Shown here: in pieces, positions 17,520-19,983 of the stretch
Position numbering within the stretch: the stretch's first letter is position 1
How the letters are laid out: each line of letters opens with the position of its first letter
Source of the DNA: a bacterium
GTDB lineage: Bacteria > Margulisbacteria > Marinamargulisbacteria > JABIPA01
DNA length: 64,000 bases
Direction of reading: 5' to 3'
Assembly: GCA_018698675.1 (NCBI GenBank)
Contig: JABIPA010000059.1
Span: forward strand, 15,784 to 79,783
The notes under the pieces: generated by a model
What the model saw: the letters and a program-made list of their open reading frames with translations, nothing else
What the model was told of the DNA's origin: nothing
Database searches by the model: none
Program-made: the position numbers and the translations under genes

Positions 17520-19796
17520 TTAAGCTCGGTTGGGTTCGTATTTTTTTGCAAGTTTTAGCATCTCATCATAGTGGGCTCCGTCGGCAACTTTAACATACTC
17601 CAAAATATTTCTTAAAACTTCAGGAGTTTCGCTAAGCAAAGTAGGGTCATGGGTCATGCTTTCTTGAACTTGGTCTTTGTGTGAAAAAATATGAGTGAAA
17701 ATCAATATTTTAGTTTTTTTGTTATCGTCAAATAAAATCTTATTAAATTGGTCGGTGAAGTTGTCAGCGAGACTGGGAAATCTAAAACCCAAAAAAGTTT
17801 CTAAAAATCGTCTAGAAACGTTAGGCATTTGATAAAAATACTCTAATGATTTTTCTGCTGTCTTGTATTTGGAATTTATATATATTAAATAAAATAGATA
17901 GTTGTATTCGGAATCAAATCGCTCTAAAAGATTATCAAGCGGGAGTAGCCTGGAGAGTCTTTTATCATCGTTTTGTTCAGCTTTGACCATATAAAAACTG
18001 CTCACTTTGTCGTTACCACTTTTTTTAAACCAGCTTTTTACTAATCTGAAAAATGTAAAATTATGGGTAAATACGAACAGCTGATAGGAAGTATTTAGGC
18101 TATTGAACAGCATTGAATATGCATGAAAAATTGCATTTTGATCGAGACTTGAGACTGGGTCGTCAATTACAACAATTCCATTATCAAGGTCAAAATCCTT
18201 ATCATAAAGGCTTTTTATAAAATATGTAAAAGCTATTGCTGTTTTTTCTCCTTCACTTAAGTGATTTGCGATATCTCCGTTTCTAAGAATTTTATAGCCA
18301 TTTTCTTCAACATCAAACTTCAGTTGAGAATGACCTAGGTACCCGTGAAGTAATTTATCCATTTCTTCAGCAGGTTTTCGATGTTCAATAATATTGGCTT
18401 CGAATTTTTGGATACGACGTTCTATATTTGCCAAAAGATTATCGAACTTTTCTATCCTTTTAGTCGAATCTTCTATGAACATAGTGTCTTTCTTAAATTT
18501 ATCAAGAATTTCAGTGTTGATAATATGATTTTCAATATTCGACCTTGTAGCATCAATTTCGGATTTAAAATTCATCGTTCTTTCATTGTGTTTTTTTATT
18601 AGTTTATTTGACCTTTCAAATATAGTTAGGATTTCGTCGTCAAAATTTGGAATTATTAGATCCTCATATTGTGTTCGTTCATAAGAAATAGCTATAAAAG
18701 GATTCTTCTTCTTGCCTTGAAGAAGCCTCTTTAGCTCCTTAAGGAAGTTCGTTCTACTTTTTTCAAGGATTTTGATGGCATCTATCGTGCTTTTATAATT
18801 TGCATAATAGTCTTCATAAAGGGCTTCTGGGCTTATTAGCTCAACCTCTTCATTTAGGGACTCATCAATAGATTTTTCGACCTCCCCGATTTCGTGCATA
18901 AAATTTTGGAATTCAGCATTAAAATGTTGATTCAGATTATCGAGAACATCTGGGTTTATCTGGTTTTCGCAAAACAGACATTGAGAGGTTGCTCTCTGCT
19001 GATACAGACTTAATCCTCCTTTTACCCAATCCTGAAGCTCGCTATCTTCTTTTAACCTAGGAATAGGCTTGGAGGTCAATGTGCGTGAAAGAAGGGCAAT
19101 TGTTTTAGTCTCAATGTCTAATAGGAGGCTGGCGAATGGTGTTAGTTCTTCTAGGATGTTTTTTTGTTTAGAGGACTTTTTTATTTGAAATTCGGCAATC
19201 TGCTCGTCAGTAAAGGAAAGGGATTCAGTAGTCTTTAGCTCTTCAAAACTACCGAGCTTTTTTTTTAAGTTCGCTTGGGTATAATCTGTATAAATTGTTT
19301 TCTCAGGAGATCTAAGATCTTCTTTTATTCTTTTTGCTTTTTCAGAAAGAAATTTTTCCTGTTCTTTAATGATTTTATTTTTATTCTGTGCACGTTCATT
19401 TTTTTTGTCAGTAAGAATAATTGACTTCTCTTTGTATTTTTCAATTAATCGCTGAAACCTGATATTGCCTTCGCCTAAGAAGAATATTGGGGTTATAGTA
19501 TTTGACGAAGTAAAAATGTTTTTTTCAGTGAATGACTGATTAAAGACTTTAATTTTATTGTGAGAATAGCTACCTCTAGAGGTTAGGTTGTATATTGTGC
19601 TATCTGTCATTTCTAATTCAAAATCAAATTCATCATCATTGTTAGTAATGAAAGAACCTAAAAAAGTTGACAGAGTAGTCTTCCCTGAGCCATTCCATCC
19701 ATAAATTAAATTTAGTTTTTGAAAGTCTGGCAGGTTACTTGACCAAGTGTAGTCGCGAAAGCTTCTAAATTTTAAGCGCCTAATTTTTTGGATCAT
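17520..19796 (-). CDS. RloC/PrrC-like AAA_13-type ABC ATPase with zinc-hook coiled coil and C-terminal candidate anticodon nuclease domain
   Basis: The Walker A is 'IYGWNGSGKTTLS'. A long charged coiled-coil insert contains the CxxC 'SQCLFCENQ'. The ABC signature is 'LSEGEKTAIAF', the Walker B/D-loop is 'GIVVIDDPVSSLD', and the H-loop is 'VFTHNF'. The C-terminal ~150 aa contain 'SRRFLETF...(~35 aa)...FTHIFSH', resembling the PrrC/RloC R-x3-E...H triad. Confidence 0.65.
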   Translation of the reverse strand: MIQKIRRLKFRSFRDYTWSSNLPDFQKLNLIYGWNGSGKTTLSTFLGSFITNNDDEFDFELEMTDSTIYNLTSRGSYSHNKIKVFNQSFTEKNIFTSSNTITPIFFLGEGNIRFQRLIEKYKEKSIILTDKKNERAQNKNKIIKEQEKFLSEKAKRIKEDLRSPEKTIYTDYTQANLKKKLGSFEELKTTESLSFTDEQIAEFQIKKSSKQKNILEELTPFASLLLDIETKTIALLSRTLTSKPIPRLKEDSELQDWVKGGLSLYQQRATSQCLFCENQINPDVLDNLNQHFNAEFQNFMHEIGEVEKSIDESLNEEVELISPEALYEDYYANYKSTIDAIKILEKSRTNFLKELKRLLQGKKKNPFIAISYERTQYEDLIIPNFDDEILTIFERSNKLIKKHNERTMNFKSEIDATRSNIENHIINTEILDKFKKDTMFIEDSTKRIEKFDNLLANIERRIQKFEANIIEHRKPAEEMDKLLHGYLGHSQLKFDVEENGYKILRNGDIANHLSEGEKTAIAFTYFIKSLYDKDFDLDNGIVVIDDPVSSLDQNAIFHAYSMLFNSLNTSYQLFVFTHNFTFFRLVKSWFKKSGNDKVSSFYMVKAEQNDDKRLSRLLPLDNLLERFDSEYNYLFYLIYINSKYKTAEKSLEYFYQMPNVSRRFLETFLGFRFPSLADNFTDQFNKILFDDNKKTKILIFTHIFSHKDQVQESMTHDPTLLSETPEVLRNILEYVKVADGAHYDEMLKLAKKYEPNRA

Positions 19797-19897
19797 GCGA
19801 CCCTCATTTCGAGATTTCGTTGAATGTGTACCAGATGTGTACCAATTTTATTTCCCCTTAAAAGCAAAAAAACACCATTTAAGGTGCTTTTGTGACT

Positions 19898-19950
19898 AAA
19901 ATATATGGCGGGAGCGATGGGACTCGAACCCACGACCTCCTGCGTGACAG
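19898..19950. repeat. att-like direct repeat overlapping 3' half of intact tRNA-Asp
   Basis: The partner copy is the degenerate repeat at 17425..17477. Confidence 0.8.
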
Positions 19951-19983
19951 GCAGGCGTTCTAAACCAACTGAACTACGCCCCC
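19906..19983 (-). tRNA. tRNA-Asp (anticodon GTC)
   Basis: The reverse complement reads GGGGGCGTAGTTCAGTTGGTTAGAACGCCTGCCTGTCACGCAGGAGGTCGTGGGTTCGAGTCCCATCGCTCCCGCCA. This is a cloverleaf with a 7-bp acceptor stem, a GTC anticodon in a CTGTCAC loop, a GGTTCGAGTCC T-arm, and an encoded CCA. Confidence 0.9.

Follow-up and report, generated by a model that had tools for sequence, protein, structure and literature searches.

A divergent, probable RloC-family protein combining an ABC ATPase and a HEPN ribonuclease domain, encoded at a tRNA-Asp gene of a marine Margulisbacteria genome

The window analysed here is a stretch of 64,000 nucleotides of contig JABIPA010000059.1, from a bacterium assigned to the Marinamargulisbacteria, and our subject is one of its minus-strand genes, an uninterrupted open reading frame (ORF) of 758 codons that starts with ATG (Table 1). 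From comparison with characterized proteins, we consider its product to be, with a probability of roughly three in four, a divergent member of the RloC family, that is, a single polypeptide in which an ABC ATPase is fused to a HEPN ribonuclease. Membership of the RloC family as such can be stated with high confidence; that the protein is a functional nuclease directed at tRNA is slightly better than an even bet. An earlier note on this DNA, made from the letters alone, had called the protein RloC-like, and this identification gained support from profile searches, alignment to a listed RloC orthologue, fold prediction followed by fold search, and motif conservation.

Residue conservation was assessed in 115 aligned sequences, those of the protein itself and of 114 relatives. 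The Pfam model AAA_13 (PF13166) spans residues 13–733 and covers profile positions 2–713 of 713 (E = 4e-134; 449.3 bits against a cut-off of 36). The best PADLOC model is the single-gene candidate PDC-S06 (E = 2.5e-202, residues 1–750), and the PADLOC hidden Markov model of PrrC matches residues 512–733, which comprise the C-terminal ATPase lobe and the nuclease domain (E = 7.7e-6). SMC_N reached 22 bits, short of its cut-off of 40, and NCBIfam contains no model specific to the protein, its RecF and ABC matches lying below threshold. A search of the PDB sequences, with the single sequence as well as with the 115-sequence profile, found no PrrC or RloC structure, only weak matches to SMC, Rad50 and ABC heads and coiled-coil noise. 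An identical protein is public as MBT5954467.1; NCBI lists it as 'AAA family ATPase [bacterium]' and IMG as 'wobble nucleotide-excising tRNase', a label that many of its relatives also carry and that we take to be the name of COG4694/RloC. Four or more independent assemblies contain the sequence, and the nearest other database protein is at most 38% identical to it.

The published inclusion rule for RloC (Table S1 of PMC2610378) comprises ABC ATPase motifs, a CXXC motif and the motifs of the anticodon nuclease triad. All three are present here, each conserved in at least 96% of the alignment, and the length of 758 aa falls within the RloC range of 658–897 aa. Entry 37 of the same table comes from Ralstonia (now Cupriavidus) metallidurans CH34 and is 792 aa long (PMC2610378). 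A tblastn search of plasmids gave a match on the CH34 megaplasmid, where the ORF is exactly 792 aa long and matches the Q3RRA9_RALME rows of Fig. S1 of PMC2610378, for example, HGQDATNCLFCEQPLPFLRLETLAAHFND. BLASTP aligned residues 2–749 of the query with residues 22–791 of this orthologue (Q3RRA9_RALME/YP_587691) at 32% identity and 51% positives (E = 3e-121); the two proteins are collinear over their whole length and have all motifs in common, and the CH34 protein differs by about 20 extra N-terminal residues and longer arm loops. The domain order is also that of GkaRloC (Geobacillus kaustophilus HTA426, 804 aa) and AbaRloC (Acinetobacter baylyi ADP1), with which the query shares Walker A, a CxFC-containing insert, LSxGE, DDP..SSLD, TH and R-x3-E-x39/40-(S)H. 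The key residues K39, C273, D545, R662, E666 and H706 correspond to K44, C291, D572, R692, E696 and H737 of GkaRloC, in the same order and at near-equal spacing.

The ATPase head contains the complete set of ABC motifs (Table 1). Walker A residues G33, N35, G38, K39 and T40 are invariant in the alignment, and the conservation of the listed motifs at 96–100% shows that they are not chance matches; every motif quoted in the earlier note lies where it had been placed or a few bases away. In VIDDPVSSLD, D545 and D546 correspond to D215 and D216 of EcoPrrC, and D545 to D572 of GkaRloC; the Thr-His pair of the switch is essential in EcoPrrC (T250/H251; PMC3025547). An AlphaFold2 model of the full-length protein, built on the 115-sequence alignment, has a mean pLDDT of 87.9 with no segment below 50 and places the β-strands of the head at residues 2–85 and 492–619. 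With this model, Foldseek retrieved from the PDB cohesin SMC1, Rad50, archaeal Smc, Lamassu LmuB and retron-associated ATPases at E values of 1e-6 to 1e-4. Since these matches include SMC1 and Rad50 heads with their coiled coils, the earlier claim of a Rad50-like ABC ATPase stands, and the predicted structure is aptly described as a Rad50-like head plus arm.

Over the N-terminal 600 residues, the structures that match best are those of Rad50/SbcC, SMC, Lamassu LmuB and the retron/Septu PtuA-like proteins. In all of them, the ABC head is divided by an antiparallel helical arm, which in Rad50 also bears a CxxC hook. A repair or chromosome-maintenance ATPase of the Rad50/SbcC or SMC type, with no nuclease role, would account for this structural resemblance and for the weak sequence resemblance that goes with it, but it is very improbable here. 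None of these proteins has a fused HEPN RNase, they work with separate nuclease partners, and the arms of Rad50 and SMC are much longer. The query has a conserved HEPN nuclease triad at its C-terminus, which disfavours the Rad50/SMC reading as well as the conjugation reading discussed below. Rad50/SbcC would further be expected to have a coiled coil of more than 200 aa per arm and an Mre11 or SbcD partner; the arm is far shorter than that of Rad50, no Mre11/SbcD or kleisin partner is encoded nearby, and the gene downstream (p173, see below) is not conserved beside homologues. The full-length profile match, moreover, is to AAA_13 and not to SMC_N.

Even less credible is a role in conjugative transfer or plasmid maintenance. 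The Pfam text on AAA_13 mentions conjugative transfer proteins, and a tblastn search of a plasmid collection found relatives on 235 plasmids, 152 of them conjugative. However, the window contains no transfer, relaxase or replication genes around the RloC gene, many relatives are chromosomal and lie beside restriction–modification (R-M) systems, and the HEPN triad is conserved.

The head is split by a helical insert at whose base, as predicted in the AlphaFold2 model, a 53-residue helix (109–161) leaves the head and a 61-residue helix (410–470) returns to it; the middle of the insert is modelled as shorter helices. Charged residues (K, R, E and D) make up 35% of the insert and 25% of the remainder of the protein. 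Heptad regularity reaches the 95th percentile of shuffled sequences or above only at about residues 130–165 and 440–480, that is, in the two long helices. Thus, the charged coiled-coil insert of about 450 aa described earlier is retained as a charged helical insert, but it is about 380 aa long (residues 109–490) and has strong heptads in these two stretches alone.

The CxxC motif noted earlier at about nt 18964–18986 was found in SQCLFCENQ (residues 271–279, nt 18960–18986). C273 and C276 are the sole cysteines of the protein, and both are invariant in all 115 sequences. In the model, the motif occupies a short loop between helices 252–268 and 282–291, near the midpoint of the insert, and by analogy it would sit at the distal tip of the arm. 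The region aligns with the hook of GkaRloC, ECAFCGN (Fig. S1 of PMC2610378), the shared context being W..G..(H)..CxFC..HF; published support for the GkaRloC hook is mutational and by analogy (PMC2610378, PMC3458546). Histidines flank the motif in most relatives: a His stands at position 265 (nt 19002–19004) in 100 and at position 291 (nt 18924–18926) in 94 of the 115 sequences, giving a pattern H-x4-7-C-x-F-C-x13-14-H-F that most relatives share with the CH34 protein and GkaRloC. The relatives that lack these histidines have hydrophobic residues in their places. Two types of zinc site are therefore possible, an intermolecular Rad50-style hook in which two protomers together supply four cysteines or a Cys2-His(2) site confined to a single protomer, and the flanking histidines of most relatives keep the intramolecular site among the candidates.

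The C-terminal segment used for fold prediction (596–758) contains an all-α domain with the HEPN fold. The structures to which this domain was matched include Las1, Csx1, Cas13b and the HEPN domain of sacsin, in agreement with the published assignment of the PrrC and RloC nuclease domains to HEPN (PMC3710099); against viral structures, the fold search yielded nothing significant (best E = 0.19). The published triad rule is Arg-X3-Glu-X36-52-His, with a Ser often preceding the His (PMC2610378), and in this protein the triad reads R662-x3-E666-x39-S705-H706, with R662, E666 and H706 conserved in 100%, 96% and 99% of the alignment. An Arg-x3-Glu pair followed by a His about 36 residues later had been proposed before; the pair and a conserved His are indeed present, but the conserved His is H706, 39 residues after E666. 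H702, which lies 35 residues after E666, is variable (His in 56 and Asn in 40 of 115). The corresponding Arg and Glu are essential both in GkaRloC (R692/E696; PMC2610378) and in EcoPrrC (R320/E324; PMC3025547), and the PrrC/RloC histidine has been identified as the H of the HEPN Rx4-6H motif (PMC3710099).

PrrC is a related anticodon nuclease. EcoPrrC (396 aa) has in common with the query the ABC ATPase motifs, including the essential Asp-Asp of Walker B and Thr-His of the switch, the HEPN domain and the Arg-Glu-His triad. In contrast to the query, it lacks the helical CxxC insert and has an Arg after the Walker A Lys-Thr, the PrrC box, the LARP motif and a Glu-x31-His spacing, and it is always linked to a silencing type Ic R-M locus. 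The query, with 758 aa, an insert of 380 aa, a Walker A of GKTT with no following Arg and no hsd genes beside it, has none of these PrrC features. Absence of the Walker A Arg is a published property of RloC (PMC3458546). Like RloC, the query is encoded on its own, and no silencer gene is linked to it.

Several observations weigh against the assignment to RloC or, at least, against an active nuclease, and the first of them concerns Ile699. In EcoPrrC, the functional residues include Arg320, Glu324 and His356 together with Arg349, Asn352 and His295, which are said to be conserved in RloC, and the substitutions R349A, R349K and R349Q all inactivate the enzyme and abolish its toxicity (PMC3025547). 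By counting back from H706, residue 699 was assigned to the Arg349 position, the Arg of the HEPN Rx6H motif. The family column at this position contains Arg in 87 sequences, Lys in 17, Ser in five, Asp in two, Asn in one and Ile in one, the last being the query, so that its Ile is unique among the 115 sequences. The alignment around the position is ungapped and unambiguous: KKTRILRYTDANSH in P0002, KARVVRFLHTHSH in CH34 and KKTKILIFTHIFSH in the query. Where the family consensus is R-F-L-H-T-H-S-H, the query has I-F-T-H-I-F-S-H, keeping the His of the Rx4-6H motif and replacing its Arg with Ile. The ATT codon is at least two substitutions away from any Arg codon, and a sequencing error is dismissed because the same protein sequence occurs in several independent assemblies. 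The equivalent of Asn352 is His702, one of the two common residues of its column. Residue 632, which lies in the Y-E-S-E-Y-H-Y-L-F block and is possibly the equivalent of PrrC His295, is Asn in the query and His in 85 of the 115 relatives, and residue 265, eight residues before the CxxC, is Tyr where 100 of the relatives have His; the CH34 protein retains the His before the CxxC, the His of YESEYHYLF and the Arg of RVVRFLHTHSH. In comparison with the RloC of Geobacillus and Acinetobacter, the query is distinguished by a Tyr for His before the CxxC and an Ile for Arg seven residues before the catalytic His. At 168 well-conserved columns it departs from the consensus 29 times, the family mean being 13 (sd 12). 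In addition, GkaRloC was aligned with the query over the hook region and compared by residue positions in the nuclease domain, and PDC-S06 is a computational defence candidate for which papers that mention it gave no phenotype or experimental test. Like the query, PDC-S06 is a single-gene candidate, and its name says nothing about mechanism that the analogy with RloC does not.

With Ile in place of an essential Arg, catalytic competence is uncertain even though the R-E-SH triad is intact, and the nuclease may be weakened, re-tuned or dead. The strongest competitor of an active RloC, although an unlikely one, is a detoxified or decaying RloC in which the missing Rx6H Arg has left the HEPN site disabled or strongly attenuated and which may be tolerated or reused as a DNA-damage-sensing ATPase. 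The inactivity of the EcoPrrC Arg349 variants, the rarity of a residue other than Arg or Lys at position 699 (104 of 115 sequences have one or the other) and the distance of ATT from any Arg codon speak for it, as do the further deviations N632, Y265 and D480 and the altered conserved columns; natural RloC orthologues listed with 'poor' or 'suboptimal' triads provide a precedent (PMC2610378). Yet the ORF is intact and was recovered in at least four independent assemblies, the ATPase motifs, both cysteines and the triad are all preserved, and the departures from consensus are no more than other members show (rank 84 of 96), making the protein divergent but no family outlier. The 17 relatives with Lys and nine with other residues at column 699 show that the family tolerates variation there, and K696, which precedes H706 by 10 residues or roughly three turns of a helix, might substitute for the Arg. 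The equivalents of PrrC Arg349, Asn352 and His295 are accessory positions that stand outside the inclusion rule of the RloC paper.

A second alternative retains an active HEPN RNase of the same architecture but gives it another substrate (mRNA, rRNA or another site in tRNA), and the label 'wobble nucleotide-excising' would then be wrong for this clade. RloC assays exist for the Geobacillus and Acinetobacter proteins only, and the query is at most 38% identical to any database protein; HEPN domains include the mRNases RnlA and LsoA (PMC3710099), and the altered active-site residues 699, 702 and 632 could shift specificity. We regard this as improbable, given that the triad and its spacing are those of RloC, that the PrrC model matches the nuclease half and that there is no positive sign of another substrate.

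If the protein is an RloC in function as well as in architecture, its mode of action can be outlined by analogy with GkaRloC, AbaRloC and PrrC. Two protomers would pair their ATPase heads in a head-to-tail, ATP-dependent manner, and the CxxC-bearing arm would silence the nuclease. DNA ends, double-strand breaks or phage-induced damage, together with ATP hydrolysis, would release it, and the HEPN site would then cut the anticodon loops of tRNAs of the tRNA-Glu, tRNA-Gln and tRNA-Lys type, two successive cuts excising the wobble nucleotide. Such cleavage would stop translation during phage attack and would amount to an abortive-infection defence.

Table 1. Features of the RloC-family gene and its surroundings (window positions; residue numbers refer to the 758-aa protein)
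Feature	Position	Strand	Basis or conservation
RloC-family gene, 758 aa (ABC/SMC-like head, CxxC helical insert, C-terminal HEPN domain)	17520..19796	-	ORF, AAA_13, PDC-S06, CH34 BLASTP
Walker A/P-loop GWNGSGKTT (K39), residues 33–41	19674..19700	-	motif search, alignment conservation
Helical insert splitting the ATPase head, residues 109–490	18327..19472	-	AlphaFold2 secondary structure, heptad score, Foldseek
CxxC C273-L-F-C276, putative zinc-hook motif	18969..18980	-	115/115 conserved; homologous to GkaRloC hook
ABC signature LSEGEKTAIAF, residues 513–523	18228..18260	-	S514, E515, G516 invariant
Walker B/D-loop VIDDPVSSLD, residues 543–552	18141..18170	-	D545, D546, P547, S550, D552 invariant
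Switch/H-loop FTHNF, residues 576–580	18057..18071	-	T577-H578 invariant
C-terminal all-helical HEPN-fold domain, about residues 622–758	17523..17933	-	fold prediction of segment 596–758
R662-x3-E666 of anticodon nuclease triad (in RRFLETF, 662–668)	17799..17813	-	R662 115/115, E666 111/115
S705-H706, triad His preceded by Ser (in FTHIFSH, 700–706)	17679..17684	-	114/115 each
Ile699 (codon ATT) at the HEPN Rx6H Arg position, equivalent of EcoPrrC Arg349	17700..17702	-	family column
tRNA-Asp (GTC), 3′ end facing the RloC gene start	19906..19983	-	ARAGORN
Direct repeat copy 1: 3′ part of tRNA-Asp, anticodon loop to CCA, plus 8 nt	19898..19950	.	repeat search, blastn-short
Direct repeat copy 2: partial tRNA-Asp 3′ half, 53 nt	17425..17477	.	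repeat search, blastn-short
Terminator-like hairpin 3′ of tRNA-Asp, within the inserted segment	19868..19891	-	sequence scan
173-aa ORF (p173), N-terminal hydrophobic segment	16883-17404	-	ORF list

The gene lies in a tRNA-targeted horizontal insertion that has no integrase of its own. Its start faces the 3′ end of a tRNA-Asp gene, and a second, partial copy of the tRNA 3′ half lies 43 nt (17478–17519) past the RloC stop codon, on the low-coordinate side. The two 53-nt copies are in direct orientation and 87% identical (E = 4e-9 within the window), they enclose the RloC gene alone in an interval of 2.42 kb (17478–19897), and the window has no third copy. The downstream copy carries a compensatory G-C to A-T change in the T-stem pair 52–62, and its acceptor strand (CGCGGTC) differs at four positions and would be mismatched to the resident tRNA's 5′ strand. 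These two properties argue against a simple decayed duplicate, and the copy looks like a fragment of a different, foreign tRNA-Asp. A foreign origin of the gene also fits its atypical composition: its plus-strand GC skew is +0.05 (0.00 for the superfamily 1 (SF1) helicase gene at 13324..16146), and that of nearly all other minus-strand genes of the window is −0.12 to −0.30. No integrase-like gene was found within 12 kb.

No empty site was recovered, as contigs with the neighbouring SSB or 173-aa genes either carry the RloC gene or stop in the tRNA, and the latter breaks are uninformative because k-mers of the tRNA are common to several species. A 28-mer of the half-tRNA copy occurred only at this locus in the viral and JGI metagenome collections, and no donor was found there. 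A σ70-like promoter precedes the tRNA-Asp gene. Between tRNA and ORF, two copies of TGGTACACAT stand in tandem one base apart (19824–19844, minus strand), about 30–50 nt upstream of the RloC start, and may serve as an operator or as part of a promoter. The ribosome-binding site, GAGGG, precedes the ATG by 5 nt.

Association with tRNA genes is occasional, not general, among RloC relatives: a tRNA gene lies within 1.5 kb at only four of 82 homologous loci. One of these four, in a Solirubrobacterales metagenome-assembled genome, repeats the arrangement seen in the window. There, an RloC homologue (10001–12241) and an Mrr_cat restriction nuclease (12244–13518) lie between a tRNA-Cys gene (9355–9426) and 43 nt that copy the 3′ part of this tRNA at 93% identity (14903–14944); a glucose-6-phosphate dehydrogenase gene follows the half-tRNA copy, and this islet, too, contains no integrase.

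The family to which the protein belongs is large, already described and already named, and the query is a divergent addition to it, not a discovery. Among 1.84 billion representatives, it comprises 1325 clusters (50% identity) at E ≤ 1e-30 and 4017 at E ≤ 1e-3. At least 559 loci occur among the GTDB species representatives, in many phyla and one archaeal group, including the small-genome or uncultured Rickettsiales, Saccharibacteria, Paceibacterota and Absconditabacterales. Some relatives lie among housekeeping genes; one is within a type I R-M locus with OLD-like ATPases, one directly follows a type III R-M pair and precedes a Fic gene, and one is beside AddAB-like, TerB and YhcG genes. These contexts are those described for RloC and for RloC-like ABC–HEPN proteins (PMC2610378, PMC3710099). 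A chromosomal enterobacterial homologue, annotated merely as 'AAA family ATPase', is present in four of 5426 complete E. coli genomes. We also observed one RloC/PDC-S06-type gene, 28.1% identical to the query, with equal score on large plasmids of Klebsiella, Enterobacter, Citrobacter, Salmonella, E. coli and Pseudomonas aeruginosa.

The earlier note had found the gene unusual for what it took to be a Chlamydiae-like genome of the obligate-intracellular type. The GatB protein encoded in the window is 95% identical to that of a sister strain and 62% identical to unnamed metagenomic proteins, and its best named relatives are from Margulisiibacteriota (56%) and Geobacter (54%). No Chlamydiae were among the 120 best GatB matches, and the host has been recovered repeatedly from marine metagenomes. 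The notion of an unusual host is thus unsupported, and with it the ground for special interest given earlier falls away.

Around the RloC gene are the tRNA-Asp gene, the 173-aa ORF, a gene for a SirB-like protein and the SF1 helicase gene. Scans against Pfam, PADLOC, NCBIfam and PHROGs gave no match to the 173-aa ORF, which in metagenomes invariably accompanies this RloC gene on its downstream side. Neither it nor any other neighbour recurs beside the gene at any of the 82 homologous loci; the gene is a solo gene, in agreement with the stand-alone nature of RloC. In three independent assemblies (contigs L002, L095 and L100), the contig breaks off at most 13 nt from the point where the 173-aa ORF stops (about 16872–16885), and two others read through, which suggests a strain-variable junction just past the pair of genes. 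Farther along the minus strand, the 940-aa SF1 helicase (13324–16146; Upf1-like, AAA_11/AAA_12) matches the PADLOC model of Mokosh MkoC (E = 2e-268). The match stops at profile position 965 of 1136 and Pfam finds no PLD nuclease domain; the helicase may be Mokosh-like, with the nuclease end missing. Directly downstream of it (12004–13233, minus strand) is a gene for a protein of 409 aa. Its N-terminal part consists of ankyrin repeats and its C-terminal region of about 300 aa is unassigned; this protein may have prompted the idea of an intracellular lifestyle.

A tentative and rather improbable generalization of the two tRNA-bracketed loci is that stand-alone RloC-type genes may travel as minimal, integrase-less cassettes into tRNA 3′ ends, moved in trans by integrases from elsewhere and leaving a direct repeat of half a tRNA, and that the copy studied here may have been detuned by the Arg-to-Ile change. 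If this were so, the detuning would lower self-toxicity in a small-genome marine host. The integrase-less bracketing of a single defence gene by half-tRNA repeats, seen twice, is a small example of how single-gene defence spreads between phyla. For the family, the protein adds one divergent sequence and leaves the existing knowledge of RloC unchanged; as a natural variant that lacks the Arg indispensable in PrrC, it is a ready-made test of the need for that residue in the RloC branch.

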